Shown here piece by piece: positions 7,580-63,814 of a stretch of 64,000 nucleotides of DNA. Position 1 is the first letter of the stretch. Each line of letters begins with the position of its first letter. Both the position numbers and the translations under genes were made by a program. Location of the stretch: NCBI GenBank assembly GCA_963744145.1, contig CAVUSO010000001.1, positions 1,934,831 through 1,998,830 of the forward strand. The letters run 5' to 3'. The notes below the pieces were generated by a model that saw only the letters and a list, made by a program, of their open reading frames with translations, was not told the DNA's origin and did not search any database. This DNA is from an uncultured cyanobacterium (lineage in GTDB: Bacteria > Cyanobacteriota > Cyanobacteriia > Cyanobacteriales > CAWUOF01).

Positions 7580-10500
7580 ATGTCTGTCAAGTCTGAAACT
7601 ATGCTGTCATCTATTTTTACAACCTGTGATCCACGCGATGAAGTCCTTGGTGGTAACTTATCCGAGGATATTTTTGCAGCTAAACTGAAGCAAGTAGTAG
7701 ATGGTAACGCACCTTTAGTTTACCAAGATCCACAGATATTTTTTGCTAATACATTTCCTACCAACGGACTCAAAACACTTATTTCAGAAGTATTTGGACG
7801 TTTAACAGGTGTTGATACTGGTTCCCCTGTAATTCGGTTAGAAACAAGCTTTGGTGGTGGAAAAACCCACGATGAAATCGCCCTTTGGCATATTGCTAAA
7901 AATGGACGGTGTATTAGTGGGTTAGATCGATTTATTAATGACATCAATATTATTCCAGATCAGCCGATTCAAGTAGCAGCGATCGCTTGTCAAGACCTAG
8001 ATCCGGTCAATGGTGTTTTCCATGAAGAATCAGGGATAAAAATTCATACCCTTTGGGGAGAAATAGCTTATCAAATTGGTGGAATAGAAGGTTATAGTTT
8101 ACTGAGAGGTTCGGACGAGCAGAAAGTTAGCCCAGGTACAGTTGTATTAGAAAAACTGACTAAAAAAGAACCAACAGTAATTATCCTTGATGAAATCGCT
8201 CAGTATCTGCGTCGCGCTAAAGCAATTCCTATTGGTAATAGTGATCTATCTGAACAAGTAGTTGCATTTCTATTTGCACTGATGGATTTAACTGCTGCTT
8301 GTAATAATATAGTATTTGTCTACACCCTAGCATCAATATCCGATACATTTGGCACTGAAACCGCAGATATTAAAGAAGCATTACAAGCATCAGCTCGACA
8401 AGAAAGGGTACTTAGTCCTAGTACGGATATGGAAATTTACAACATTGTTAAGCAGCGGATTTTTAAGAGGATTGAGGATAAAGCTGCTGATCTTGCTGCT
8501 AAGGATTATTTTAGTGTTTACCAAAACAGTCGGTTAAATCTACCTGATAGCTGTAAAGATGCTAACTATACTCAGGTATTAAAGTCTAGCTATCCCTTTT
8601 CACCGGAACTCTTTACTCTATTAACTAAAAAAATTGCTTCAATTCCTAATTTTCAACGCACCAGAGGAGCTTTACGATTACTTGCAATGGTAGTAAGACA
8701 TCTTTGGTTGGATACATCGGTATGGATACCAATGATTCATCCCCATCATATTCCTATTGGTGTAGATGAAGGTGTCACCAGTGAATTTACTTCTCGGTTA
8801 GAACGTCCCTTAATGCGAAACCCGATTCAAGCAGATATTTTTAATCCTGATGGTAAACTTGCTCATGCTCAAATATATGATGAAGAGTGGTTAGTAGCAG
8901 GAAAACCACCTTTTACAACATGGGTAGCAAGGACTATTTTTCTTCATTCAATTAATCAAGGGACTGTCGCAGGAATTCGACGCGCTGAGTTAAATTTAGC
9001 GTTACTTACTCCCAAGATTGAGATTAGTTTTATTGAACCGGTACTAGAACGTTTGACGACTGTAGCATGGTATTTAGATATTGATCCGGTGACAACGATC
9101 GCTCGTTTTAAAGAAGAGCCATCAATTAATAAAATTATTGCTGAGGAAAAAGAACAGATTCACACACTAGCTGCTAAAGAAACTCTGCGATCGCGACGGG
9201 ATAGTATTTTTGCTAATCAAGTATTTACCTTAGTTACTAATCCGGAAAGTGCGGGAGATGTGGATGATCAACCTGATGATATTGCTCTGTGTATAATTGA
9301 CTTTGATCAAGAAACTGTATCAGCACCAACGGATGGAGTACCTCCTCTAGTAGAACAAATTTTTCATAATACCGGGGAGTCTGGTAAGTTCCGGATATTT
9401 CGGAATCGGCTGCTTTTCTTAGTAGCAAATAAACATGAATTACAACGAGCGATCGAGATTACTAAAGAATATTTGGCAATCCAAAATATTTTGAAGTCAC
9501 CAAACCGTCTCGAAGATTTGTCTGAGTATCAGCGGAAGCAACTGCGAGAAAGGAGTGGAGCTAAAGATTTAGATGTAAGAGTTTCTTTAACTAATACCTA
9601 TCGTCATCTTTTTTATCCAACTAGCGATGCTGTCAAAGCACCAAAGGGATTATTACACTTCACTTTACCCGCTGAAGCTACAGGATATATAAAAGGAAAT
9701 AAGAATCAGCAGGATGTTATTCTCAAAGCTTTAAAAGATTGCGAAAAAATTCGCAAGGAAGATTTAGCTCCTGTTGCTCCTGCTTACATTTTGCAAAAAG
9801 TTTGGTTAGCAGGAATTGATCACTGGACGACCAAAGCTTTGCGCGAAGAATTTGCTAAGAAGCTTTCTCTAAATATGCTCCTTGATGCAGATATTTCCAA
9901 ACTAAGGGAAACCATCCGCACTGGAATAGAGAAAGGTCAATGGGATTTGAAAGTTGGTAATAAAGTCTATATTCTCTCTGACGATGGAAAATTACCAAAT
10001 TTGCCAGATACAATTGAGTTTTCTGATCGGATGGAGTTATATCGACGTGGGATTCTAAAACCTCCTGAACCCCGTGTGATTGAGTTTAATGCTCAAGTTA
10101 TGTCTAGTAGTAATTTAGCTAAACCTGTTCGTCTACGATGGCGATCGCTAGGTGCTTTATCAATTCAAGTTTATCAGGATAATATCCCGCTAACTGGTGA
10201 ATTTTCACCAACAGATAATTATGAAGTTGAAATTACCCAAACCACAACTTTCAAAATTGTCGCTGACTATGGTAATGGTGAAACCGCAGAAAAAGAAACT
10301 CAGGCTACAATTGCTTCCTATTCGACCCCAATCAGTGCAAAGACTAAGTTTCATGATACACCATCAATTTTTGAGGTTAAACCTGAGATCATAGAAGAAA
10401 ATGGGACTGTTAATGCTGCTTTTACCGCATTTAGCGATCGCTGTTCTGATGACAAAGTTAAAGGAGTTAAGAGTTTAGAAATTGCGGTGGATCAGGTGAT

Positions 10501-11998: not shown

Positions 11999-12582
11999 TT
12001 ACTGTACCTAATAATCAAAAACTCTCACCTGATGAATATTTTGCATGGGAATCACAGCAAGAAATCCGTTATGAATATATTGATGGTAAGGTATTTGCAA
12101 TGGTAGGAGTAACGATAGCCCATAGCACGATCGCTACTAATTTGATTGCTTTACTGCGACCACATTTACGGGGACGAAATTGTCGAGTATTGGGGTCAGA
12201 TGCGAAAGTGGGTATTTCTCCAAGTGGTGAATTTTTCTATCCAGATTTATTGGTAACTTGTGACGATCGCGATCGCAATTTTGCTAAGGCGGTATTTTAT
12301 CCAAAGCTGATTATTGAGGTATTATCCCCTAGCACAGAAGCATACAATCGCGGTGGTAAGTTTGCGCGTTATCGACAGTTAGCAAGTTTGAACGAATATG
12401 TGTTAGTTAGCTCGGAAAGTATTGGGGTTGAGGTATTTCGGCTTAATGAGCGGAGCAAGTGGGAATTAACACCCTTTGGGGTTGGGGATTTGGTGCAGTT
12501 TGCTAGTATTGAATTTGAATGCGCGATCGCTGCAATTTATGAAGACGTGGATTTTTTAGAATACAGCGGATTCGGTGGCTGA
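11995..12582 (+). CDS. Uma2-family (DUF820) PD-(D/E)xK endonuclease
   Basis: YEYIDGKVFAMVG, YPDLLV, PKLIIEVLSPSTEAYNRGGKFARYRQLASLNEYVLV are Uma2 hallmarks. Confidence 0.75.
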   Translation: MITVPNNQKLSPDEYFAWESQQEIRYEYIDGKVFAMVGVTIAHSTIATNLIALLRPHLRGRNCRVLGSDAKVGISPSGEFFYPDLLVTCDDRDRNFAKAVFYPKLIIEVLSPSTEAYNRGGKFARYRQLASLNEYVLVSSESIGVEVFRLNERSKWELTPFGVGDLVQFASIEFECAIAAIYEDVDFLEYSGFGG

Positions 12583-12892
12583 TGAAGTACAGTAAGATTT
12601 GGCATGAATGGTGGGACAGGCATCTTGCCTGTCAGAGATTGTAAGTGATCTGTGTTGGTTGGGCAGGTTTATGATAGTTATCTGTTTGGAGCAGAATTGA
12701 TTGGTGAACCTGCCCCTACAAATCCTGTTAATCTTGTAATCCTCTCATCCTGATCGATTTTTTGGTAAATCCCTGTAGGGGCGGGTTCACCGATGAACTT
12801 GCCACACACAAATAACCCTTGTGCCGAGCGCAGTCGAGGTATTAATGAACCCGCCCTGCCCCACAGATCACCTTGATGAACTTCATAAACCT
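12583..12892 (+). repeat. MITE-like dispersed repeat (GGTGAACCCGCCCCTAC core family), about 310 bp copy with nested inverted repeats
   Basis: Contains ggtgaacctgcccctacaaatcc ... ctgtaggggcgggttcacc and gatctgtgttggttgggcaggtttatgat ... aacccgccctgccccacagatcacc pairs. Direct copy at about 17895-18160, inverted partial copy at about 14014-14165. Confidence 0.7.
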
Positions 12893-38381: not shown

Positions 38382-38557
38382 GAAGATACATTGATGTATA
38401 TTGATCTGTGGGTGAGGGTGGGTTTTGATGATTAGTAGGTAAATGTCAAACATCTCGGTGAACCCGGGCGGGTTTTTCTAATTAATTGGTAAATTTCAAA
38501 AATCTGGGCGAACCCGCCCCTACTACAGAAATCCGCAAATTGAGGATAAAATTGGTA
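38368..38557 (+). repeat. left half of a MITE-like element split by IS insertion
   Basis: Identical to 58765-58957 (...gaggataaaattggtag). Continues at 40288 after the IS. Confidence 0.75.
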
Positions 38558-49986: not shown

Positions 49987-52440
49987 TTAAGTATGATTTG
50001 ACCGGGGGATGAGAGAAGATATGGTAAAATAAAATGTAGCACCTTGTTCAATCGCACCTTCGGCCCATACTTGACCCCCATGTCGATGAATAATCCGCTG
50101 CACGGTTGCTAATCCGATTCCAGTCCCTTCAAATTCTTGCATCCCATGTAAGCGTTGAAAAACACCAAATAATTTATCAACATAAGCCATATCAAATCCA
50201 GCTCCATCGTCACGCACAAAATAAGTGAGTTGAGCGGAATTATTTTTGACACAAGCACCAAATTCGATCTGAGCATGAGGATGTTTAGAGGTGTATTTCC
50301 AAGCATTTCCCAATAAGTTTTCTAAAACTACTCGCAATAGTCTTCCATCTCCAGTGGCAAAAATTTCGGGATGGATGATAAATTCTACTTGTCGATCGCT
50401 ATGATTTTGCTGTAAATAAGTAGCAATTTCGGTAGCAATTACACTTAAATCGACCTGTTCTTGTTTAATTTCACCACGACTGATGCGAGAAAATTCTAAT
50501 AAATCATCTATTAATTCTCCCATTCTTTGGGCGGCACTTCTCACCCGTTGTAAATAATCTTTGCCAAATTCATCCAGTTGATCTTCATAATCTTCTAGTA
50601 ATGCTTGACTAAATCCATCAATACTCCGTAATGGCGATCGCAAATCGTGGGAAACGGAATAGGAAAAAGATTCTAATTCCTGATTAGCTGCTTCTAATTG
50701 CTTAGTGCGTTCAATTACCCGCTGTTCTAATTCAGCATTCAAATGGCGAATTTCTAATTCTGCTTGCATTCTGCGCTCAATTTCCTGAGTTAATGTAGCA
50801 TTAGATTTAGCCAGTTCAACGGTTCTCTTTTCAACGCGGATTTCTAACTCATCATTAGCTTTTTTTAACGCTAATTCTGCTTGCTTACGTTCAGTTAGAT
50901 CCCTTGCTATACCCGCAATTCCAATAATTTCACCATCTTGATTATAAATAGGTGTTTTAATTGTTTCAATCCAGATCGTTTCTCCTGATGCTTTGACAAA
51001 AGGTTCTTCAAACCGCTTCCGAGTCTTGGTTCTAATTACTTCTAAATCATCTGCTCGATATTTTTCGGCTAATTCTAAAGGTGCAATATCAAAATCGGTT
51101 TTACCAATTAATTCTTCCAGACTGGTAGCATTAACTGATTTGACTAAGCATTCATTCACCGCAATAAATTTACTTTCAGGATCTTTTAACCAAGCCATAT
51201 CTGGGATATTATTAAAAATCGCTTTAGTTAAATGATCACTCTCTTGCAAAGCAATTTCGATTAACTTGCGCTGGGTAATATCCGTTGAAGTACCCGTGAT
51301 CCGATAAGGTTTATTATCAACATCCCAAATCGCATTACCACGAGCAAGAAACCAACGGATCTCACCATTTCTATGCACCATCCGATATTCACTTTCGTAA
51401 TTAGCTGTATGACCTTGGAGATGTTCTGCTAATTCTGTCCTCATTTTTAGAACATCATCCTTATATACTAAAGCATACCAATCATCCGGGTTATTAGCAA
51501 TGTCATAATCAGAATATCCCAGCATGGCTTTTAAGATAAAATCTAGATAAATTTCATTTGTTTCTAAGTTCCAATCCCAGACTCCCACATTACCAGCACT
51601 GACAGCTAGAGCATATCTTTCTTGACTAATTTTTAGCTGTTCTTCTACTTGTTTGCGTAAACGTAATTCACTGCTAGCATCACTAATATTAATCGCTACA
51701 CCGTGCCAAATTACATCTCCACAGTCTAATCTTTCTGGTTGAGCAATCCATTGAATCCATTCCGTCTCCCCAGATTGTTTGACAACCCTTCCTTCCCATC
51801 TCCAAGGTTCTAATCTAGTTGCACTTGCTTCTAATTCATTAACTAAACTATGACGATCATCTCGATGAACCATTTTTAGAATCGGCACCTGACTATCGGG
51901 TTGAATTTCCCCTGATTCTAACTCAAATAATTTGCTACCACCCGAACTAATAAATGGAAAAGAAAAATCCCCATTAGGTTGCATTAAAAATTGAAAAACC
52001 ATCCCCGGTAAACTATCTACAGCTTTGGCTAATCTGGTGGTATTTTTTTCAATTTCAGCAGCAGCGATCGCTGATTTTACAGTTAATGGTAAAACCTTTA
52101 GATAATTAAGCTCTGCATCTTTCTTCAGATAATCTTTTGCTCCCATTTTCATAGCTTTGACAGCTATTTCTTCACTACCTTTATTAGTTAATATTATTAC
52201 AGGAATGTCAATTTTTACCTGGAAAATATCAAAAATATTACCATCGCTCAATCGATATTCAGAAATAATTAGGTCAAAGCTATTAAGAGATGAAATTTGG
52301 TTATATTCAGCAATAGATCTAATTATTTGGTAATCATAATTTAGATTTATTTCTTTTACCTGATGCTGAAAAGCAAGTTGGTAAAATTGGTCATCTTCAA
52401 TCAGCAAAATTTTGTAAACAGCTTTCATCTGATCATCCAA
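49987..52440 (-). CDS. multi-PAS sensor histidine kinase with N-terminal receiver
   Basis: Receiver (ILLIEDDQF...[10 protein letters not shown]). Several PAS/PAC blocks. H-box [11 protein letters not shown]. HATPase ([17 protein letters not shown]). Confidence 0.85.
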
Positions 52441-53464: not shown

Positions 53465-54736
53465 ATGATAATCGATCAGGGGGGAAAAAATAATCCTGAT
53501 CTACCGGATAAATTTTTTCAAGGAGAAATAATGATGAATCTTGAACAAATTGATCAATTGCTAGCTGACTGGCAACATAAAATCAACCTAATTAGTCAAA
53601 ATCTGATCGATTTACAAGCATTTCCAACCTACCAAAGACTATCTGGTGATCCTGGTTATCCTCTGCTCCAATTAAAGGGAGTAACCCAAGCCAGAGTAAA
53701 TCCAGCATTACAGAGCATGAATGAATTATTTCAACATTTTGATTTATTGTTAAATACACTTAATCAAGCCACTGATTTAAGAAAGCAAATCCTAAGATTT
53801 TTAGGTTCAGAATCCAAAATTAGAGAAATTGAAAAGATTTTAAAATCACCATCAATTAAATTACCAGCTGTCCAAATTCCCCTAGCAATGAGACATTTAC
53901 TGAGTGCGACAGAAACGGTTAATGCGATCGCTCCGGAACAGTTACTGATGGAAATGATCAAAGCATTTCAAATTGCTAAAGATGCTGTATTAGCAGTTGA
54001 TAGTGCTTGGTCAACTTTAGAAGAAAAACTAGCCCAAGCTGAACTGGAAGTTAGCACCCTGCAAAAATTAGCCAAATCTTTGGGTGTAAATATAGAAAAT
54101 GAATTATTGATCACCAGACAAAAGATTGATTGTTTACGCGATCGCATTGATACTGATCCCCTAGGAGTTAGTGCCGATTTCGACCAAGAGATTCGAGCGA
54201 CACTTGCCCAAATAAAAACTAATCTCGAAAATTTAGTCAAACAACAAAACCAGATTAAAGATAACTTAGCGATCGCCCATAATCTGTTCAATCAGTTAAC
54301 TCAAATTCACCACCAAGCTGAAATAGCTTTTCAAGAAAGTTATGAAAAAATCCTGGAACAGTCTCATTTACAGAGTCCTCTACCGATCGCCCAAATTGAC
54401 GCATTAGGTCAATGGTTAAGTAGACTAGAAACTAAATTTTCTGAAGGTATATTAAATCCGGTTAGCGTTGGATTAGCAAACTGGATGATTAAAGCTCAGG
54501 AATATATTACTATAGAAAATAAAGCTTATACTGCCAATAATGCTCCTTTAGCAACTAGAAAAGAGTTAAGGGGAAGACTCGAAGCACTGAAAGTGAAAGC
54601 AGTAGCAAGGGGTTTAGCAGAAGATCCGACTATTGCGGAATTAGCTGAAAATGCTAAACAGCTTTTATATACAAGTCCGACACCTTTAGATCAAGCATTA
54701 GATTTGGTATCGCGATATGAAAAAAAAATTAAATAG
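53465..54736 (+). CDS. hypothetical coiled-coil protein
   Basis: Long helical/heptad-like sequence. No catalytic motifs. Probable start at MMNLEQ (about 53531). Confidence 0.4.
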   Translation: MIIDQGGKNNPDLPDKFFQGEIMMNLEQIDQLLADWQHKINLISQNLIDLQAFPTYQRLSGDPGYPLLQLKGVTQARVNPALQSMNELFQHFDLLLNTLNQATDLRKQILRFLGSESKIREIEKILKSPSIKLPAVQIPLAMRHLLSATETVNAIAPEQLLMEMIKAFQIAKDAVLAVDSAWSTLEEKLAQAELEVSTLQKLAKSLGVNIENELLITRQKIDCLRDRIDTDPLGVSADFDQEIRATLAQIKTNLENLVKQQNQIKDNLAIAHNLFNQLTQIHHQAEIAFQESYEKILEQSHLQSPLPIAQIDALGQWLSRLETKFSEGILNPVSVGLANWMIKAQEYITIENKAYTANNAPLATRKELRGRLEALKVKAVARGLAEDPTIAELAENAKQLLYTSPTPLDQALDLVSRYEKKIK

Positions 54737-54761
54737 TTAATCCTAATTTACTCGGTCAGAT

Positions 54762-54965
54762 CCATTGATGAGATTGATCTGTGGGTGGGGGTGGGTTTTT
54801 ATAATTAGTGGGTAAATTGCCAAAATCCGGGTGAACCCACCCCTACAATAATCGGCAAATTGAGGATAAAATTGATGGAAAAATATGTGATTAAATTGGT
54901 AGGGAGAGGTTCACCAATAAATTTGTTACCAACAGATAACGATCATAAACCTGTCCCGTTCTCCC
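54762..54965 (+). repeat. MITE-like dispersed repeat, divergent copy
   Basis: gatctgtgggtgggggtgggttt...ccgggtgaacccacccctacaa...gaggataaaattgatgg...gagaggttcaccaataaattt...cagataacgatcataaacctgtccc. Confidence 0.65.
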
Positions 54966-54993
54966 AAATCAAACTAATTTAAAGGAGTGTTCC

Positions 54994-57171
54994 ATGAACT
55001 CAGAAAAATGTCAAAGACCAGGATGTAACGGTATCATAGAAGATGATTACTGCAATATTTGTGGACTTGCAGCACTAAAAAAGTCAGACATAAATACCTC
55101 TTCACCAAGTAGAGCAACTAAACCAAGCGATCGGATTACGACCGGTACAGGTTCCTCACCCCTCACCAATCGTTCTTCTAAAGGTTCTCGACGTACCAGT
55201 ACCTCAGCTAGAAGTAGTCGTAAACAACTCGGTGCTGGACTGGTATCAATTCCAGAATTACCTTCAACCGAACCAGAAAAAGCGATTATGCTAGAAGCAA
55301 AAGTGCCAGAAAATAAGCGCTTTTGCTCAAATTGTGAAAACCCCCTGAAACGAGAACAGGGATTCTGTAGTAAATGTGGCAAAAAATTTTCTTTTATTGC
55401 TACACTCCATTCTGGTGATTTAATTGCTGGTCAATATGAAGTAAAAGGAGCGATCGCTTATGGAGGATTAGGTTGGATTTATCTTGGGTTTGATCGGACT
55501 TTATCTCGTTATATAGTTCTCAAAGGGTTACTCAATACTGAAGATGCTGCTAGTGCAGCAGTTGCAGTAGCAGAACGCAAATTTCTTGCTGCGGTTAAAC
55601 ACGCTAATATTGTCGGAATTTATAACTTTGTCAATCATGGAAACGAAGGTTTTATCATCATGGAATATGTTGGTGGTAAAACTTTAAAACAAATTCGGAA
55701 AGAACGCGGACCACTACCAGTTACCGAAGCGATCGCTTATATTCACCGAATTTTAGGTGCATTTGCTTATCTCCATTCCTTGGGATTAGTATATTGTGAC
55801 TTTAAACCTGATAACGTGATGCTCGAGGGAAATGATGTCAAATTAATTGATTTAGGTGGTGTGAGACGGATTGATGATTTAGAGGGTGATATTTATGGGA
55901 CAGTTGGTTATAGCGCTCCCGAAGCAGGTGAAGGACCAACTGCAAGTTCTGATTTATTCACGATCGGAAGAACATTAGCTGTTCTGATTGCTGACATTAG
56001 AGGTTTTAGTAAAGAACATCTTTATACTTTACCCAACGCGATTGAAGAACCTGTATTTGCTCAACAAGAATCCTTATATCGATGGTTAATTAAATCCACC
56101 GCTGAAAATCCAGACGATCGCTTTCAATCTGCGGATGAAATGGCTGATCAATTATTAGGAGTATTGCGAGAAATAGTTGCAAAAGAAACAAATACTCCCC
56201 GTCCGAGTGATAGTAATATCTTTGGGGGAGATCTATTATCAATGATCACTAGCAATGATTTTGAACCGATCGCTCCTAGTTATCAACAACTACCTATTCC
56301 CATGATTGACTCAACTGATCCTGGGTTTAATGTAGTAATCAACGCAAGTGCTATTGCTAATCCACACCGACAATTTGAGAGTTTTAAACAAATTGTGCAA
56401 CAATTTCCTACTTCTACTGAGGGAGTTTTACGTCTAGCTAATAGTTTAATTAATCTTGGTGCTTATGATGAAGTAGAAAAAGTTTTAGCGCAAATTGAGG
56501 AAAAAGATCCTTGGGATTGGAGAGTGCTATGGTATCGAGGACGATCATTAATGTCTCAAGGTAAAGCAAAGGAAGCAGAAGCAGCTTTTGATCAGGTTTA
56601 TTTCGATTTACCAGGAGAATTAGCACCAAAATTAGCCCTAGCTTTAGCCGCAGAGTTAGCTCATAATTATCAACTAGCAATTAAAATGTATGATGTGGTA
56701 TCACGGACTAATCCAAGTTTTACTACTGCTGCTTTCGGTTTAGCCCGTTGTTTAAGCGCAATTAGCGATCGCAATGGTGCAGTAAAAGCTTTAGAACGAA
56801 TACCACAAACATCATCTTTATGGGTAAAAGCGCGGGTAGAAATAGCCCGGACTTTAATCGATCGTCAACATCAAACACCGGGAATGGAGGAATTACAAGC
56901 AGCAGCATCAGCAATTGAAGCGATCGCTCTAGAAGGAATGGATCACCATAAACTAACCTTACAGGTTTTAGAAACAGCTTTACATTTAATTTCTTCCCAA
57001 GCATTAGCACCAAATTCCAGGATCTCAATTTTCGGACAACCTCTGCAAGAATTACATCTGAGAAAAGGGTTAGAAAAATCTTTGCGAGCGATGGCACATT
57101 TAACAACTGGAGATGATAAAATTCGGTTAGTGGATCAAGCTAATCAAGTCCGTCCAGTCACCTGGGTTTAA
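54994..57171 (+). CDS. PknG-like Ser/Thr protein kinase: double zinc-ribbon N-terminus, Ser/Thr-rich linker, kinase domain, C-terminal TPR-like domain
   Basis: CQRPGCNG...CNICG and CSNCEN...CSKCG. Kinase motifs CDFKPDNVML and DLGG. TPR-like C-terminal helices. AAAGGAG RBS upstream. Confidence 0.8.
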   Translation: MNSEKCQRPGCNGIIEDDYCNICGLAALKKSDINTSSPSRATKPSDRITTGTGSSPLTNRSSKGSRRTSTSARSSRKQLGAGLVSIPELPSTEPEKAIMLEAKVPENKRFCSNCENPLKREQGFCSKCGKKFSFIATLHSGDLIAGQYEVKGAIAYGGLGWIYLGFDRTLSRYIVLKGLLNTEDAASAAVAVAERKFLAAVKHANIVGIYNFVNHGNEGFIIMEYVGGKTLKQIRKERGPLPVTEAIAYIHRILGAFAYLHSLGLVYCDFKPDNVMLEGNDVKLIDLGGVRRIDDLEGDIYGTVGYSAPEAGEGPTASSDLFTIGRTLAVLIADIRGFSKEHLYTLPNAIEEPVFAQQESLYRWLIKSTAENPDDRFQSADEMADQLLGVLREIVAKETNTPRPSDSNIFGGDLLSMITSNDFEPIAPSYQQLPIPMIDSTDPGFNVVINASAIANPHRQFESFKQIVQQFPTSTEGVLRLANSLINLGAYDEVEKVLAQIEEKDPWDWRVLWYRGRSLMSQGKAKEAEAAFDQVYFDLPGELAPKLALALAAELAHNYQLAIKMYDVVSRTNPSFTTAAFGLARCLSAISDRNGAVKALERIPQTSSLWVKARVEIARTLIDRQHQTPGMEELQAAASAIEAIALEGMDHHKLTLQVLETALHLISSQALAPNSRISIFGQPLQELHLRKGLEKSLRAMAHLTTGDDKIRLVDQANQVRPVTWV

Positions 57172-57198
57172 TCAAACCTATAGTCAAAAATTAATTTT

Positions 57199-58146
57199 AT
57201 GCAATGTCCAAAATGTCATAATTCCGTCCAAATTACCGACCGTTTTTGTGAAGAATGCGGGACAGAACTAATGGTAACTAATTTGAGCAGTGCGATCAGC
57301 AACTGTGAAAAATGTGGTGCAGATGCGGAGCAAATTGATCAGGAAGGATACTGCTCTAATTGTGGATTTCGTCGAGAAGAAAGAGAAACAGATCGGATTG
57401 AAATAAATTGCTCTCCCTGTTTAGCTGGGATCAGCGATCGGGGACTTAGACATCATCATAATCAAGATTATATCGCTGTTCAACATATAGAGCATACGGA
57501 CATATTAGTTGTATGTGATGGAGTTTCCAGTTCCGAATCACCAGAATTAGCAGCAAAAGCTGCTGCTGTAAGTGCTTGTCACAGTTTAGTAACTGCGGTT
57601 GAAAATAATATTCCCTTACCAGCAGCAATCAAACAAGCGATCGCAGCAGCACAAGCAGCAGTATGTGCTGTTCCTTATACCACACCGACAGAAAACTCAC
57701 CATCAACTACCATTGTCGCAGCGATCGTGCAAAATAGTATGGCTGTAATTGGTTGGTTAGGAGATAGTCGTGCTTATTGGATTTCTGACCAAGATTCACA
57801 ACAATTAACCACTGACGACTCTTGGTTAAATGATATGATCGCATCCGGTCAATTGACCGAAGCAGAAGCAATCCAATCAGACAAAGCACACGCAATTACT
57901 CGTTGGTTAGGAGCAGATAATAGCGACACTGAACCATCGATTATTACTTTTCCTTTTGCTAATTCTGGATATTTGTTACTATGTAGTGATGGTCTATGGA
58001 ACTATTTACCTAAATCTGCACAAATTGCTGAACTTGTCAAGCTCAATATCAAATCAGATACCATAACAATTTCGCGCTCGTTAGTTGAATATGCGCGACA
58101 CTGTGGCGGGCATGATAATATTAGTGTGGCGATCGCAAAAGTATAA
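57199..58146 (+). CDS. PP2C-family Ser/Thr phosphatase with N-terminal double zinc ribbon
   Basis: CPKCH...CEECG and CEKCG...CSNCG. PP2C motifs (GISDRGLRHHHNQD, VCDGVSSS, LLCSDGLWN, GGHDNISVA). Confidence 0.8.
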   Translation: MQCPKCHNSVQITDRFCEECGTELMVTNLSSAISNCEKCGADAEQIDQEGYCSNCGFRREERETDRIEINCSPCLAGISDRGLRHHHNQDYIAVQHIEHTDILVVCDGVSSSESPELAAKAAAVSACHSLVTAVENNIPLPAAIKQAIAAAQAAVCAVPYTTPTENSPSTTIVAAIVQNSMAVIGWLGDSRAYWISDQDSQQLTTDDSWLNDMIASGQLTEAEAIQSDKAHAITRWLGADNSDTEPSIITFPFANSGYLLLCSDGLWNYLPKSAQIAELVKLNIKSDTITISRSLVEYARHCGGHDNISVAIAKV

Positions 58147-58149
58147 TAT

Positions 58150-58262
58150 TTGATAAATTGTTGAAGCAAACGTAAATTATCTAGCATCCGAATATAAGCT
58201 TTCACTTGGGGATATTTTTGATTAATTTTCCAGGAGAAACTAGCGATCGCTACTAAATATTT
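58150..58262 (-). repeat. diverged/truncated copy of the about 140 bp peptide-encoding repeat
   Basis: caaacgtaaattatctagcatccgaatataagctttcacttggggatatttttgattaattttccaggagaaactagcgatcgc. Confidence 0.6.
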
Positions 58263-58341
58263 TTGCTCTGATATTTACTCCTCAATAAAAAGTCCATTCT
58301 ATTATCCCAATTCAGGCGATCGCCCTTTTAATCCAACAACA

Positions 58342-58611
58342 CTAACCCCGGATCGGACAAAGACTGAGAGTGGAACAATCAACTTTAATTCTCGGACGCA
58401 GTTCAACTTGAACCAAAGTCTTTAACTCTTCATTTTGTGGTGCTACAAAAAATTCTAATTTGCCGTTAATATAGTCAGTAATTTTAATCATATTCACCAA
58501 TTCAAAACACATAATTCCTATCGTTGCATCGGCTATTTTTAATTGAATTTGAACTGATTCTTGAATAATATTTATTCCCAACTTGAGAGTAACACCTAAC
58601 GAATCTGTCAC
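58342..58611 (-). CDS. hypothetical protein (weak)
   Basis: ORF only. An upstream same-frame segment is separated by TAA. Confidence 0.2.
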   Translation of the reverse strand: MTDSLGVTLKLGINIIQESVQIQLKIADATIGIMCFELVNMIKITDYINGKLEFFVAPQNEELKTLVQVELRPRIKVDCSTLSLCPIRG

Positions 58612-58764
58612 TTCATAACACCAATAACCATCGGACGGTTGAGATTTTTTCGGTTCTTCACAAAATAATTATAGGAAAGCTAGTTCATCAAATCCACCTT
58701 GCAGATTGATTTTTGTCATTTTTTTACCTAAGATATCAGGTCATTTTCCATATATTATAGCACT

Positions 58765-59070
58765 GATACCAATTCACCATGAAGATACATTGATGTATAT
58801 TGATCTGTGGGTGAGGGTGGGTTTTGATGATTAGTAGGTAAATGTCAAACATCTCGGTGAACCCGGGCGGGTTTTTCTAATTAATTGGTAAATTTCAAAA
58901 ATCTGGGCGAACCCGCCCCTACTACAGAAATCCGCAAATTGAGGATAAAATTGGTAGGGGCAGGTTCACCAGTCAATTTTACCACCAACAGATCACCATT
59001 ATAAACCTGCCCTGGCCTAACAGATCAACCTCAGATTAAGTGCAATTTCATAGTTAATTGGTATCACCTC
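58765..59070 (+). repeat. intact about 300 bp MITE-like element (reference copy; equals 38368-38557 plus 40288-40410 joined)
   Basis: Continuous identity to both flanks of the IS110 insertion. Confidence 0.8.
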
Positions 59071-59317
59071 AATATCTACTTCACCCTCTTCTCCTGTATT
59101 GTTATTTATAAAAGTCTCAGTAAATCGTTTAACAATATTGCTTTCTTGCTGCACAGTTTGCTCAAGATGAGTTTGAATAAATTGACGAGATTCTGAATGT
59201 CAAGGGCTTATTTTTAATATATAGGTTTTAGGAATTGTAAAATTATATCATTTTTAGCAAATAGGCGGGAAGTATTGAATAATAACAAGATTATGCTGGC
59301 TGAGTTTTTATTTTAAC

Positions 59318-59470
59318 TCTGAATTTACCTACTGATTATGATTTTTGGATCGATCGCTCATCATCCTGATGTCCAAGGATCAGCAAACGTAAATAATCTA
59401 GCATCCGAATATAAGCTTTCATTTGGGGATATTTTAAATTAATTTCCCAGTAAAAACTAGCGATCGCGGG
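59318..59470 (-). repeat. about 150 bp repeat whose minus strand encodes MKAYIRMLDYLRLLILGHQDDERSIQKS; here forms the 3' end of the 142 aa ORF
   Basis: Near-identical to 60304-60444. Confidence 0.7.
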
Positions 59471-59764
59471 AATATCAAACACTCGCATTCTTTGCAATCG
59501 CTCAATTGCTTCCTGTTCATTTTCAATCCAACCTCGTACTTGAATTTGACTAGCATAACCACGGATATCTGATGTTAACAGATCAATTTCCTCTAAAACC
59601 GTAAAGTCTTCATTGGTAACTAAAGGTAAAGCCGCTATCTCTTTTCGTTCTTGCTTGGTATTCTGGTAATCGATAGTTAATTGCTCTAACAGGTGAGTAA
59701 TATAGCTTCTAGTGCTTGGAGAACTTTTAGGATTAAACGTTGCTTCAGTCATCATTAACTCCAT
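59336..59764 (-). CDS. hypothetical protein (C-terminus contributed by repeat)
   Basis: 142 aa ORF, 20 nt overlap with the upstream 114 aa ORF. The last 28 codons are identical to the stand-alone peptide ORF in the repeat copy at 60315-60401. Confidence 0.4.
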   Translation of the reverse strand: MELMMTEATFNPKSSPSTRSYITHLLEQLTIDYQNTKQERKEIAALPLVTNEDFTVLEEIDLLTSDIRGYASQIQVRGWIENEQEAIERLQRMRVFDIPAIASFYWEINLKYPQMKAYIRMLDYLRLLILGHQDDERSIQKS

Positions 59765-60089
59765 AGGTGACTATTTTTTCAATTCCAAATTGATTGGGTC
59801 TTACAATTAGATATTCATTTCCTTTTCGATAAACGGCTGAACTATCTCGACGATATCCAGTCGGTGGGACTCGGTTTGCTCTCTTCTTATTGAAGTTATG
59901 GGCTTTGCGTAGATATTTTAATGGATCAAATTCTTTTCTTAAAGCATGGTCTAAAATATTTTGAGCTACACTGATATAAGTAGAAGCATCCCACTCAGCC
60001 ATATACTGCATTATTTCGGTAACTTCTGTCTCACTGTATCCTTCATATAGCTGGGTTAAAAATGGATCGATAGACTCATTCGACATCAA
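59745..60089 (-). CDS. hypothetical basic protein
   Basis: 114 aa. Lys/Arg-rich C-terminal half (RKAHNFNKKRANRVPPTGYRRDSSAVYRKGNEYLIVRPNQFG). Coupled to the next ORF. Confidence 0.4.
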   Translation of the reverse strand: MMSNESIDPFLTQLYEGYSETEVTEIMQYMAEWDASTYISVAQNILDHALRKEFDPLKYLRKAHNFNKKRANRVPPTGYRRDSSAVYRKGNEYLIVRPNQFGIEKIVTYGVNDD

Positions 60090-60303
60090 TTTTTAACTCT
60101 AATTGAGTGAGTGGTTTGATCATAAAAAATGAGATATTTATCCAAACCTCAGCATTTTCTGATGGCTGTGACGTTATCATATAGGTTGATCGCTTTGCCT
60201 AAATTTGTTTCTCCCTCAACTGCGAATTATCCTCTATATCTATATTATGATAACCTATTTTTGGAAAAATTTATGATAGGTAATGTCCATTTTAGCTCCA
60301 AAT

Positions 60304-60444
60304 TTACCTAGGGATTATGATTTTTGGTGCGATCGCTCATCATCCTGATGTCCAAGGATCAGCAAACGTAAATAATCTAGCATCCGAATATAAGCTTTCA
60401 TTTGGGGATATTTTAAATTAATTTCCCAGTAAAAACTAGCGATG
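60304..60444 (-). repeat. about 140 bp repeat copy immediately downstream of the vWA gene; contains a free-standing 28-codon ORF (about 60315..60401)
   Basis: Near-identical to 59318-59470. The repeat edge supplies the TAG stop of the vWA gene. Confidence 0.7.
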
Positions 60445-61722
60445 ATCATCACTCAATACAGTTTTAGAAACAATCCGGGTTTTCTTGCGATCGCTTTGGG
60501 AAAGTTCTTTTCCTGACTGTAACTGAGTAGCACTACTTTGTAACACTGTCGCAGCACTTTGATCACCCATTTGTAAAGCAGTTTTTGCCGCAGTTTGCAA
60601 CATGGTTGCAGCACCTGCTCGGTCTCCTTGTTCTAATTTTATCTCTGCTAACTGAGTTTGTCGATATTTCGCTAAAGCTAATATATATTGTTGTACCTCT
60701 GCATCTTGCATTGGTTGATAATTCCGTACCACATTTGCTTCAACTGGAACAATTTGTGATAATAAACCTTCCTGATTGCTCCCAGGATCATCATAGCGAA
60801 TTTGGACTTGTGCGATCGTATTTTTTCCTTCTGATAAAGCTCCAATATAAATATTCCCCAATAATATTCTAGGATTATCCTTCATTAAATCTCCCACTCG
60901 TATTTGCCATCGATTACCTAATTTCTCCACAGGTAATTCAATCACATCTGGTCGAATTTGGGCGATCGGTTTCAGTTCAGCTAGACGAATATTATCACTT
61001 AGAGATAGAAGGAGATAAGCATTAGTTAAACCTACAGATTGTAACCGATTAAACAGACGACTAAACTCAGTTACAGCTTGTTCTGGATGCTCAATATAAC
61101 ATAAACTTCCTCCACCCGCATCAGCGATATTTTCCAGCAAATCTTGATTCCAATCTGAGCCAAAACCTAAAGTATTAATAGTAATATTTGTTAAAGCAGC
61201 AGTGCGTAGTGCTAATTCACGACAGCGTCGATTATCATCATTACCAATTTGCCAATTAAAAATCTTGAAACCGCTTTCTCCATGTCCATCCGTGAGTAAA
61301 AATGCGTGGGAAATTGCTTGATTTGTTCCCTTATTCAATTCTTCCAGTCCCTGATTTAAACCAGCATAAATAGAAGTGCTACCCTCAGCTACCAAATTTT
61401 TGACTTGCGATTTTACTTGTGCTGGTGATTGCATCAGTTGATTGGGAACAATCACTTTAGCTTCTTCATTAAAAGCGACTATGGAAATGCGATCGGTAGG
61501 TTTAAGCTGATCCAATAATTTTTCAACTGCTAATTTCACAGTTTGGAGAGGTTTTCCGGACATCGAACCACTCCGATCCAAAATTAACCCCAAATTCAGG
61601 GGAATATTTTGATCTAGTGCTTCCGAAATTGCCGCAATAGAAATACCTAATTGACGCTGACTATTCTTTTGATTAGCATCAATATTAGCATCATTTAAAA
61701 TCGCTTGTAATTTAATTTTCAT
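60436..61722 (-). CDS. von Willebrand factor type A (vWA) domain protein with C-terminal helical (TPR-like) region
   Basis: MIDAS DxSxS (ILDRSGSMSG) and T/D (LLTDGHGE). Start taken at MKIKLQAILND by homology with the paralog. The track ORF is extended upstream. Confidence 0.75.
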   Translation of the reverse strand: MKIKLQAILNDANIDANQKNSQRQLGISIAAISEALDQNIPLNLGLILDRSGSMSGKPLQTVKLAVEKLLDQLKPTDRISIVAFNEEAKVIVPNQLMQSPAQVKSQVKNLVAEGSTSIYAGLNQGLEELNKGTNQAISHAFLLTDGHGESGFKIFNWQIGNDDNRRCRELALRTAALTNITINTLGFGSDWNQDLLENIADAGGGSLCYIEHPEQAVTEFSRLFNRLQSVGLTNAYLLLSLSDNIRLAELKPIAQIRPDVIELPVEKLGNRWQIRVGDLMKDNPRILLGNIYIGALSEGKNTIAQVQIRYDDPGSNQEGLLSQIVPVEANVVRNYQPMQDAEVQQYILALAKYRQTQLAEIKLEQGDRAGAATMLQTAAKTALQMGDQSAATVLQSSATQLQSGKELSQSDRKKTRIVSKTVLSDDHR

Positions 61723-62971
61723 GACGAGGTTTATCCTGCAAAACAGTTTTCGATACAATCCGAGTTTTCTTACGTTCAGCTTCAGAAAGTTGTTGACCAG
61801 ATTGAAGACGAGTAGCACTACTTTGTAATACCGTCGCTGCACCTTGATCACCCATTTGCAAAGCAGTTTTTGCCGCAGTTTGTAACATTGTAGCTGCACC
61901 AGCGCGATCGCCTTGTTGTAATTTCATTTCTGCTAATTGAGTTTGTCTATATTTCGCTAAAGCTAAAATAAACTGTTGTACTTGAGGGTGAGGAGCAGGT
62001 TGATAAGACTTGACAACATTAGCATTAACTTGAATCACCTCAGACAATAACCCTGTCATCCCAAAAGTTGGATCATCGTAGCGAATTTGCACTGTAGCGA
62101 TCGGTTGTCTACCTTCTGGAAACTTACCAATATAAAGATTAGCTAAAATTACCTTTTCGACATCCTTCATTAAATCTCCCAACCGGATGACAAACCTACC
62201 ATCTTCTACTTGGGTGGGTAATTCAATTACATCTGGTGCTACCTGAGCGATCGGTTTTAGATCCGCAAGACGCACATTAGGAACTAGAGATAAATACAAA
62301 AAAGCATTAGTTAATCCGACCGCAGAAATCCGGTTAAATAAACGACTAAAAGCTTCTACGGCTTGTTCTGGACGTTCAATATAAGATAAATTACCACCAC
62401 CACCATCTGCAATTTTTTCCAGAATATCTTGATTCCAATTATCACCAAAACCTAAAGTATTTAAAGTAATATTATATTCAGCCGCTAAAGCAGCTAACTT
62501 TAAACAACGCTCATTATCACCATGTTCATTTTCCCCATCAGTCAACAAAAAAGCTTGAGAAGTAGCATCTTTTTTCCCCTTAGCTAACTCTTCAATTCCT
62601 AATTTTAAACCTTCATCAATAGCTGTTCCCCCGTCAGCCCGTAAACCACTAATTGCACTATTAATCTTACTCGGTTCTTCAATTAACTGATTTGGCACAA
62701 TAATCTTAGCTTTATGATCAAATGCTACTACCGACAGGCGATCGGTAGGTCTGAGTCGTTCCACAATTCGTTTAGCCGCATTTTTGACTGTATCAAGGGC
62801 GCGTCCACCCATTGACCCACTATGATCCAAAATTAAACAGAGATTGAGGGGGACATTACCATCCAGCTCACCAGCGATCGCGGAAATCGAAATGCCTAAC
62901 TGACGTTGACTCGTCGCTTGATTAGCATCAACATTGGTATCATTTAACATCGGCTGCAAATTAACTTTCAT
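61712..62971 (-). CDS. vWA domain protein (tandem paralog)
   Basis: ILDHSGSMGG, LLTDGENE. C-terminus ...AGAATMLQTAAKTALQMGDQ...KKTRIVSKTVL shared with the paralog. 11 nt overlap with the downstream paralog start. Confidence 0.8.
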   Translation of the reverse strand: MKVNLQPMLNDTNVDANQATSQRQLGISISAIAGELDGNVPLNLCLILDHSGSMGGRALDTVKNAAKRIVERLRPTDRLSVVAFDHKAKIIVPNQLIEEPSKINSAISGLRADGGTAIDEGLKLGIEELAKGKKDATSQAFLLTDGENEHGDNERCLKLAALAAEYNITLNTLGFGDNWNQDILEKIADGGGGNLSYIERPEQAVEAFSRLFNRISAVGLTNAFLYLSLVPNVRLADLKPIAQVAPDVIELPTQVEDGRFVIRLGDLMKDVEKVILANLYIGKFPEGRQPIATVQIRYDDPTFGMTGLLSEVIQVNANVVKSYQPAPHPQVQQFILALAKYRQTQLAEMKLQQGDRAGAATMLQTAAKTALQMGDQGAATVLQSSATRLQSGQQLSEAERKKTRIVSKTVLQDKPRHEN

Positions 62972-63148
62972 AAACCCAAAGTCCTAGCAACATCAAAGAT
63001 TCTATTCCAATTCTAAGGGTTAAACAGATTCACCGCACCAGCCAGCCTCACCAATGACCCATAAATGATCCCAATCCCGATCTGCTGCTCATCCCAGAAG
63101 CAAGCTACTATGTTTTAAAGATAGCGACATCATTACAGGCTACAGGCT

Positions 63149-63814
63149 ATGGACTCATCGATTCAGGCTGTTCAATCTCCCTACTATGGAGATGCTTACT
63201 ACCGAACACCTCCTCCCGATTTACCCTCCCTACTATTAAAGGAGCGAATAGTTTACCTTGGCATGCCTTTGGTGCCGGCTGTCACCGAACTAATTATCGC
63301 CCAACTTCTGTATTTGCAATACGAAGACCCCGAAAAGCCGATCAAAATCTACATCAACTCCATTGGTACTACTGGCTACGAAGGTAAACCAGTCGGCTTT
63401 GAAACAGAAGCCTTTGCCATCTGCGATACGATGAGCTACGTTAAACCTCCGATTCATACTATCTGTCTGGGATCGGCAATGGGTATGGCTGCGATGTTAC
63501 TTTCAGCCGGGACAAAAGGTTGCCGTGCTAGCTTGCCCAATGCTTCGATCGTTTTACACCAACCGATGATGTATTACCGAGGTATGGCCCAGGCTACCGA
63601 TATCCAAATTCGGGCTAAAGAAGTGCTGGCTAATAAAGCCACCATGATGAGTATTTTGTCTCGCACCACCGGTCAGTCAGCGGAAAAAATTGCTAAAGAC
63701 ATGGATCGGTTATTTTATCTAACTCCCCAAGCAGCGAAAGAGTATGGTTTGATTGACCGAGTTTTAGAAAGCAAGGAAGATTTACCTGTACCACTACCCG
63801 CTGGGGCGATCTAA
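63149..63814 (+). CDS. clpR: ClpP-like non-catalytic subunit ClpR
   Basis: ClpP fold (ERIVYLGMPL...IKIYINSIGT...ICLGSAMGMAAMLL...IVLHQP) but the catalytic Ser position is Gly (GSAMGMAA versus GQAASMGA). Immediately upstream of a clpP. Confidence 0.7.
   Translation: MDSSIQAVQSPYYGDAYYRTPPPDLPSLLLKERIVYLGMPLVPAVTELIIAQLLYLQYEDPEKPIKIYINSIGTTGYEGKPVGFETEAFAICDTMSYVKPPIHTICLGSAMGMAAMLLSAGTKGCRASLPNASIVLHQPMMYYRGMAQATDIQIRAKEVLANKATMMSILSRTTGQSAEKIAKDMDRLFYLTPQAAKEYGLIDRVLESKEDLPVPLPAGAI

Follow-up and report, generated by a model that had tools for sequence, protein, structure and literature searches.

An intriguing question raised by the genome of an uncultured cyanobacterium is whether a protein kinase and a phosphatase that both carry N-terminal zinc ribbons form part of a larger signalling module, and which of the surrounding genes belong to it. 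The pair lies in a 64,000-nucleotide stretch of contig CAVUSO010000001.1 (positions 1,934,831 to 1,998,830, forward strand; hereafter the window) and consists of a PknG-like Ser/Thr kinase and a PP2C phosphatase. Two tandem genes for vWA (von Willebrand factor type A) proteins lie convergent to them, and the original prediction, made from the letters alone, joined all of these into one association to which an upstream coiled-coil (CC) gene and two small open reading frames (ORFs) might also belong. From the gene neighbourhoods of related kinases, we found that the CC, kinase and PP2C genes likely make up the opening three of a signalling cassette of six conserved genes, truncated in this window, with the makeup of a GlnX-PknG-FHA-type phospho-switch.

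Close relatives of the kinase were scanned with one genome kept per species, giving 80 loci. These were mapped using as queries the window proteins together with the kinase-neighbour proteins of Nostoc sp. C117 (L041) and Phormidesmis (L013). A recurrent co-directional order was noted: CC, PknG-like kinase, zinc-ribbon PP2C, 4FX5-type vWA, zinc-ribbon FHA protein and a membrane sensor of the GlnX family. The CC gene was adjacent upstream of the kinase in 54 of the 70 loci with enough sequence, which bears out its suspected membership, and the predicted kinase-phosphatase pairing was likewise conserved, the PP2C gene being adjacent downstream in 49 of the 67 loci with enough downstream sequence. 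All four downstream genes (PP2C, vWA, FHA and GlnX) were found at 38 of 49 loci with enough sequence, and a further three of the 49 carried PP2C, vWA and FHA genes without the membrane protein. Lack of synteny in related genomes had been named as grounds for rejecting the module; across the 80 loci, the synteny around the kinase was found to be conserved.

The three downstream components not represented by a query from the window were characterized from the other loci. The cassette vWA protein has 425 amino acids, matches Pfam VWA_3_C (E 3.1e-21) and aligns over its full length to PDB 4fx5 (E 8.6e-105). We take that entry to be a structural-genomics structure of a von Willebrand factor type A protein, presumably from Catenulispora acidiphila, and to our knowledge it has no assigned function. 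The FHA protein (220-250 amino acids) combines two N-terminal zinc ribbons with a C-terminal Pfam FHA domain, keeps the phosphothreonine-binding GR...SxxH...NG residues and has seven cysteines that were invariant in 49 of 49 orthologues. The sixth protein is a membrane protein of about 465 amino acids of the four-helix-bundle GlnX family, with a precomputed Pfam Sensor_actino assignment. Such GlnX-type proteins scored 246-302 bits on NCBIfam NF058618 (cut-off 250), being above the cut-off in Nostoc sp. C117 and Phormidesmis and at 245.5 in an acidobacterial locus (L075). The sharing of zinc ribbons by two antagonists, which the original prediction had singled out, is therefore real and extends to a third cassette protein, so that kinase, PP2C and FHA reader all carry them.

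Within the window, the predicted features were all confirmed in their places, with small corrections to start codons and cysteine spacing. The features of the region are as follows.

53465/53531-54736, + strand: CC protein, all-helical, cassette gene 1; the start is probably 53531.
54760-54940, no strand: copy of a repeat resembling a miniature inverted-repeat transposable element (MITE), between the CC and kinase genes; without a function in the module.
54994-57171, + strand: PknG-family Ser/Thr kinase of 725 amino acids.
57199-58146, + strand: PP2C with an N-terminal double zinc ribbon, 315 amino acids, 27 nucleotides past the kinase stop.
58147-59335, no strand: breakpoint region of 1.2 kb with repeats, in place of the cassette vWA, zinc-ribbon FHA and GlnX genes.
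59336-59764 and 59745-60089, - strand: overlapping small ORFs (one of 114 and one of 142 amino acids), neighbours outside the module.
60436-61722, - strand: VWA2, tandem vWA paralogue.
61712-62971, - strand: VWA1, tandem vWA paralogue.
63149-63814, + strand: ClpP-family gene, divergent from VWA1.

The ORF at 54994-57171, preceded by a Shine-Dalgarno AAGGAG upstream of its ATG, encodes a full-length PknG-family kinase with an intact kinase core. Three Pfam domains were matched, namely PknG_rubred (residues 74-137, E 1.9e-17, 63.4 bits vs a 28.5-bit cut-off), Pkinase (residues 148-369, E 1.6e-31) and PknG_TPR (residues 431-723, E 8.4e-69). Residues 78-723 aligned to the Mycobacterium tuberculosis PknG structure 2pzi (E 3.7e-132), covering the rubredoxin, kinase and TPR domains through to the C-terminus, and the PknG architecture first suggested for this protein was in this way upheld. 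Its parts are placed as follows.

55009-55062, + strand: N-terminal four-cysteine knuckle (Cys 6, 11, 20, 23).
55075-55293, + strand: Ser/Thr-rich tail (residues 28-100).
55213-55404, + strand: rubredoxin domain by Pfam (Cys 111, 114, 125, 128).
55435-56100, + strand: kinase core by Pfam.
56284-57162, + strand: PknG TPR domain by Pfam.

Two ribbons of the form CxxC...CxxCG had been read into the kinase. The second stands: it is the PknG family's defining rubredoxin domain, with two CxxCG motifs directly before the kinase domain. The first does not have that spacing, being C-x4-C...C-x2-C-G, and is extra relative to the PknG family. The linker was correctly described as Ser/Thr-rich, with 34% Ser+Thr in residues 28-100 vs 12.7% protein-wide. 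Among 20 orthologues of 71-78% identity, the catalytic residues K177, E194, D269, N274 and D286, the cysteines C20, C23, C111, C114, C125 and C128 and the tract T50-x-T52-G-S54-S55 were all invariant, and C6 and C11 were at least 90% conserved. It is a non-RD kinase and carries a DLG motif; VLK177G, CD269FKPDN274 and D286LG were invariant, and the latter two line up with the YNDLKPEN and DLG segments of PknG from M. tuberculosis.

The PP2C protein was found to possess its own pair of zinc ribbons, as predicted, in a Pfam DZR domain at residues 3-56 (57205-57366; 29.0 bits vs a gathering score of 27.3) with cysteines at 3, 6, 17, 20, 36, 39, 52 and 55, and all eight were kept in 56-57 of 57 orthologues. 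The catalytic domain (57430-58137) matches Pfam PP2C_2 (E 3.4e-14, 53.3 bits vs a 24-bit cut-off), and the metal-binding motifs are all present: NQD88, D107GVS, D264GLW (SDGLW) and HD306N. The score on the NCBIfam Stp1-type model was 156 bits, under its 230-bit equivalog cut-off. Because the ribbon cysteines of kinase and PP2C are invariant or nearly so in orthologues, the pattern is not due to chance, and the loss of these cysteines among orthologues, the other named ground for rejection, was not what we observed.

It was also noted that Chamaesiphon genomes carry a 753-amino-acid PknG-like paralogue (60-63% identity) that stands alone (L060, L061, L064, L065, L067, L068, L070, L072, L074, L076, L079). 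The CC, PP2C, vWA, FHA and GlnX genes are all absent from its flanks, which covered up to 10 kb per side and less on short contigs.

For the CC protein, the longest ORF opens at 53465, and the start is probably M23 (53531, giving 401 amino acids), as judged from an identical 401-amino-acid database protein. There were zero sequence matches in Pfam, NCBIfam, PHROG and PDB. A profile search of 1.84 billion representatives returned 1754 clusters at 50% identity, nearly all of about 400 amino acids and with full-length matches. The CC protein is thus a distinct family lacking a Pfam or NCBIfam model, and the cassette is its only contextual clue. Joint Genome Institute pipelines tag single members 'exonuclease VII small subunit' or with a name starting 'cell division protei', and these names are taken to be an artefact of coiled-coil composition.

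The distribution of the cassette was assessed across lineages. Across cyanobacterial orders, the kinase is conserved at 70-78% and the cassette vWA at up to 95%, and the nearest relative of the window kinase (78% identity) has a complete cassette. In that locus (L086), an IS605 OrfB/TnpB gene (8606-9868) sits between CC and kinase and a GNAT acetyltransferase gene (12310-12846) between kinase and PP2C; because these lie inside it, the cassette evidently tolerates intergenic insertions. The same six-gene order was found in Acidobacteria, in metagenome-assembled genomes of Bryobacteraceae and Terriglobia (L063, L071, L075, L077, L080), with identities between the two phyla of 60-64% for the kinase and 66-69% for the cassette vWA. 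It was encountered again in the actinomycete Nonomuraea gerenzanensis (L089, 4676-12343), where genes 1-6 show 27%, 38%, 31%, 45%, 28% and 30% identity to the window or Nostoc queries and every zinc-ribbon cysteine of kinase, PP2C and FHA protein is retained. As far as sequence comparison can tell, a cassette shared by Cyanobacteria, Acidobacteria and an actinomycete points to interphylum transfer of the entire cassette. The GlnX-family model NF058618 already exists at NCBI, and a rubredoxin-bearing PknG homologue in Calothrix has been mentioned in passing (PMC8546545). The cassette itself is not described in the searchable literature: among open-access papers and bioRxiv, we found no paper on the six-gene cassette, the zinc-ribbon trio, the CC component or the three-phylum spread.

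This apparent movement between phyla, with the kinase at 60-64% identity between Cyanobacteria and Acidobacteria, would also suit an anti-phage or conflict system resembling TerY-P, in which a vWA protein, a PP2C and a Ser/Thr kinase with a zinc ribbon act as an infection-triggered defence. TerY-P comprises a TerY-like vWA, a PP2C and a Ser/Thr kinase with a proposed phosphorylation switch (Anantharaman et al. 2012 and Gao et al. 2020, via PMC11090510), and the full cassette repeats this theme, since genes for a vWA protein, a PP2C and a Hanks-type kinase stand together and a zinc ribbon is fused to the kinase (PMC11090510). Some loci have mobile or defence-like flanks, such as the IS605 orfB, DNA methylase and AAA_21 ATPase genes of L086, and in the window repeats and a toxin-antitoxin-like ORF pair adjoin the cassette. 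However, the zinc ribbon or OB fold of the TerY-P kinase is C-terminal, whereas the cassette ribbons are N-terminal and the kinase C-terminus is the PknG TPR domain, not a zinc ribbon or OB fold. The cassette vWA is of the 425-amino-acid 4FX5 type with VWA_3_C, and FHA, GlnX and CC genes are added. A GlnX-type extracytoplasmic sensor fits poorly with intracellular phage sensing, and an effector, for example a nuclease or a pore-former, is missing. PADLOC gave only generic matches for the six proteins (PD-T4-6 and mad6 for the kinase, PDC-M21C for the PP2C) and nothing for vWA, FHA, GlnX or CC, in a release that may lack TerY-P models. There were zero relatives on IMG/VR viral contigs, and the very high conservation of kinase and cassette vWA is unlike that of fast-diversifying defence genes. 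We therefore regard a TerY-P-like defence role as quite unlikely. The recurrent but poorly understood vWA, PP2C and Ser/Thr kinase association that the original prediction invoked does recur in the cassette, with another vWA than the one proposed; it is, however, tied by its FHA and GlnX genes to the actinobacterial GlnX-PknG-FHA pathway and is not an instance of a generic association. In the full cassettes elsewhere, vWA, PP2C and kinase genes are adjacent, whereas the window has no co-directional vWA and the nearby pair comes from another locus.

The window holds cassette genes 1-3 only (CC, kinase and PP2C; 53531-58146). No homologue of the cassette vWA, zinc-ribbon FHA or GlnX gene was found within the 64 kb, and no remnant follows the PP2C gene (58147-60435; tblastn, E up to 1). 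Weak vWA, FHA and GlnX tblastn matches (E 0.05 or worse) fell inside a MITE-like repeat and were taken as spurious. The sequence is cyanobacterial in character, with a guanine-cytosine content of 36-45% and 68 copies of the HIP1 octamer GCGATCGC per 64 kb vs about one by chance. An independent short-read (Logan) assembly of the same organism confirmed the sequence to 58379, at least 233 nucleotides past the PP2C stop. A similar break following PP2C was noted in Stigonema ocellatum (L005).

In place of the missing genes, the stretch 58147-59335 contains a degenerate duplicate of the 142-amino-acid ORF's 3' end (58165-58250), just past the PP2C stop codon, and a MITE-like repeat (58785-58996). 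This 3' end occurs three times, with identities of 100%, 95% and about 92% among the copies (58165-58250, 59310-59464 and 60289-60443); the one at 60289-60443, which is the 95% copy, directly adjoins the stop codon of VWA2. HIP1 sites coincide with the borders of the repeats. Such triple copies at the breakpoint suggest serial insertion and decay of small two-gene cassettes. The MITE-like dispersed repeat, of about 180 nucleotides, is present at 571-675, 38386-38554, 54760-54940 and 58785-58996, with partial copies near 12700, 14040 and 40300, and two of its copies flank the kinase and PP2C genes on either side. An inverted-repeat pattern built by hand for this repeat gave zero matches. No non-coding RNA or tRNA was found at the breakpoint, and promoter and terminator scans showed no excess over the shuffled expectation. 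The small ORFs at 59336-60089, which had been put forward as possible module members, were absent from all 80 kinase loci and had zero Pfam, NCBIfam, PADLOC and PHROG matches, and that proposal is withdrawn. Upstream of the region lies a large hybrid sensor histidine kinase gene (49987-52440, - strand) with an N-terminal receiver, several PAS-like segments and HisKA/HATPase domains; it showed no conserved adjacency to the cassette elsewhere at meaningful identity.

The tandem vWA pair at 60436-62971 was otherwise accurately described: the genes are tightly coupled by an 11-nucleotide overlap (ATGAAAATTAA), and both proteins have an intact MIDAS motif, D-x-S-x-S ... T ... D. The start of VWA2 is the ATG at 61722, not that of the longer listed ORF. 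VWA1 and VWA2 are 63% identical over their full length, and their orthologues across cyanobacterial orders show 73-78% identity. Pfam found the VWA domain in both, and VWA_3_C was not matched at E < 0.01. By BLASTP, VWA1 is 29% identical to the cassette vWA in the vWA domain only; profile-profile comparison (hhalign) extended the likeness to columns 44-384 vs 46-386 with a probability of 99.1% and E 5.5e-19. VWA1 matches PDB 4fx5 in the vWA domain and in some of the middle domain (E 6.3e-9), whereas 4fx5 and the cassette vWA are homologous along their full length. On these alignments, VWA1 and VWA2 are probably distant full-length paralogues of the cassette vWA. They belong to a different conserved locus. 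In Calothrix NIES-2100, Microcoleus FACHB-68 and the source organism, their orthologues are oriented divergently to the genes clpR/clpP3 and to a gene for a DnaJ-TPR protein, and the window is alike. Tandem or single 4FX5-like vWA genes were observed beside clp genes in the window (60436-63814), L082 (8231-12534) and L084 (8443-11239), a tightly conserved vWA-Clp pairing that reaches across distant cyanobacteria.

These observations bear on the proposal that kinase, PP2C, convergent vWA pair and small ORFs form one module in which the vWA proteins are substrates or partners of kinase and phosphatase, or, in a softer form, that the pair replaced a lost cassette vWA. Only 2.3 kb separate the pair from the stop codon of PP2C, it appears to share the three-domain architecture of the cassette vWA according to the hhalign match, and the cassette's own vWA is missing here; by a rough estimate, chance adjacency of a vWA of the same superfamily in a 7.6-Mb genome would be about 1e-3 to 1e-2. 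However, no VWA1 or VWA2 orthologue occurred within 10 kb at any of the 80 kinase loci, from which the small ORFs, the clp gene and the upstream dehydrogenase were also absent. In Calothrix NIES-2100, the vWA/clp locus (3.33 Mb) and the kinase cassette (7.0 Mb) are 3.67 Mb apart. The conserved neighbours of the pair are clpR/clpP3 and dnaJ, as in the window, its orientation to the kinase is convergent, the gap between them is full of repeats and unconserved ORFs, and its BLASTP identity to the cassette vWA is low and limited to one domain. The pair as part of the module was accordingly ruled out by synteny, the cassette vWA being a different, co-directional gene, and we consider the one-module proposal highly improbable. 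It is also very unlikely that the pair has been co-opted here as a partner in the role of the cassette vWA. The vWA-kinase adjacency is lineage-specific, and its likeness to the vWA, PP2C and Ser/Thr kinase theme is largely coincidental. As part of the truncated-cassette reading, it is likely that the cut cassette came to lie beside an unrelated tandem vWA/clpR locus through a rearrangement whose marks are the repeats and the small, unconserved ORFs; the vWA, FHA and GlnX genes would be either elsewhere in the source genome or lost.

The cassette was compared with the PknG pathway of Actinobacteria (M. tuberculosis, Corynebacterium glutamicum). There, PknG is under the control of GlnH in the periplasm and of GlnX, a membrane protein with a four-helix bundle. 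The kinase autophosphorylates threonines near its N-terminus, through which the FHA protein OdhI/GarA is recruited and then phosphorylated by PknG (PMC9769921, PMC8546545). The window kinase shares the rubredoxin-kinase-TPR architecture, the non-RD DLG motif and the Ser/Thr-rich N-terminal tail, and the full cassette supplies a GlnX-family protein above the NCBIfam cut-off and an FHA protein that is a likely reader or substrate. Differences were also noted. The window kinase has the extra N-terminal four-cysteine knuckle; the cassette FHA protein has two zinc ribbons in place of an ETTS tail; there is no GlnH; and the zinc-ribbon PP2C, 4FX5-type vWA and CC proteins are encoded in cis. Unlike the actinobacterial system, the cassette also occurs in Cyanobacteria and Acidobacteria, and its copy in the window is without GlnX, FHA and vWA genes.

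Were the kinase to do the same job as PknG of Actinobacteria, it would respond to amino acids and, by way of an inhibitory FHA protein, govern the metabolism of 2-oxoglutarate and glutamate. Cyanobacteria use 2-oxoglutarate as their central carbon/nitrogen signal, which would suit such a role, and three components are homologous: PknG, the GlnX family and an FHA protein whose best NCBIfam match is OdhI (E 9e-6). Set against this, the clusters have no glnH-type gene, the FHA protein falls far under the OdhI cut-off and carries zinc ribbons and not the ETTS phospho-acceptor tail, and the glnX-glnH-pknG operon contains nothing that corresponds to the vWA, CC and PP2C genes. If the canonical pknG operon is also present in Nonomuraea, as would be expected, the cassette there would be a paralogous system. 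Since the FHA protein is no OdhI/GarA equivalog, GlnH is missing and three extra genes are conserved, the output is probably not 2-oxoglutarate dehydrogenase control, and direct equivalence is unlikely. The cassette is best read as a variant of the actinobacterial PknG pathway with a built-in eraser.

A comparison by gene classes, not by protein homology, is offered by the DRA0331-DRA0334 operon of Deinococcus radiodurans, which encodes vWA, Ser/Thr protein kinase, FHA and PP2C proteins and for which FHA-dependent push-pull antagonism of kinase and PP2C was shown experimentally (bioRxiv 10.64898/2026.01.23.701218). The same four functional classes are present in the cassette, and the operon supports a push-pull logic. 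Its phosphatase docks through a KI-FHA domain, whereas the cassette PP2C has a double zinc ribbon, and in the abstract the kinase is not described as PknG-type and GlnX and CC components are not named.

Under the reading of a GlnX-PknG-FHA-type switch, the cassette may operate as follows. By homology to the actinobacterial pathway, the GlnX-type sensor would read an extracytoplasmic signal and pass it to the kinase, probably via the TPR domain. The kinase would then autophosphorylate threonines of the conserved N-terminal tract TTGTGSSPLT, and these phosphothreonines would, again by homology, recruit the FHA reader, after which the reader or its cargo would be phosphorylated. Gene content further suggests that the cis-encoded PP2C would remove the marks to give a push-pull switch. 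The zinc ribbons of writer, eraser and reader, together with the MIDAS vWA and the CC protein, might keep the parts in one assembly.

Several points weigh against this reading. The roles given to the zinc ribbons and to the vWA and CC proteins are conjectural. A gene for a GlnH-type binding protein is absent from the clusters examined (L086 and L087 by their called genes, L041 and L013 by their ORFs), and the cassette FHA protein, although OdhI is its best NCBIfam match, reaches 25.6 bits vs the 200-bit OdhI/GarA equivalog cut-off. If the vWA, FHA and GlnX genes have been lost from the source genome, the kinase and PP2C may act differently here or be decaying; despite the missing half of the cassette, both ORFs are intact with all catalytic residues.

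A more speculative extension, which we hold to be unlikely, is that the zinc ribbons, which are invariant across the three phyla, serve as a common address tag docking writer, eraser and reader on a CC and/or vWA scaffold under the GlnX-type sensor, in a self-contained phospho-switch possibly gated by zinc or redox state, and that this would be an ancestral form of the PknG pathway. In this organism the cassette would be split, and the clpR-linked vWA pair might have been co-opted, tying PknG signalling to Clp proteolysis.

The lesson of the window itself is the narrower one of a truncated copy whose vWA neighbours are likely there by rearrangement and not by common function. In M. tuberculosis, PknG counts as a virulence factor and as a drug target; in Corynebacterium, it governs glutamate production. 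The cassette places sensor, kinase, phosphatase, FHA reader, vWA and helical partner in one operon, including in genetically tractable cyanobacteria, and links the CC protein, a conserved 400-amino-acid family without a Pfam model, to Ser/Thr signalling. It would offer a compact system and a large co-evolving sequence set for GlnX-PknG coupling, and it hints that a layout with cis-encoded FHA and PP2C may be the older one of the PknG pathway.

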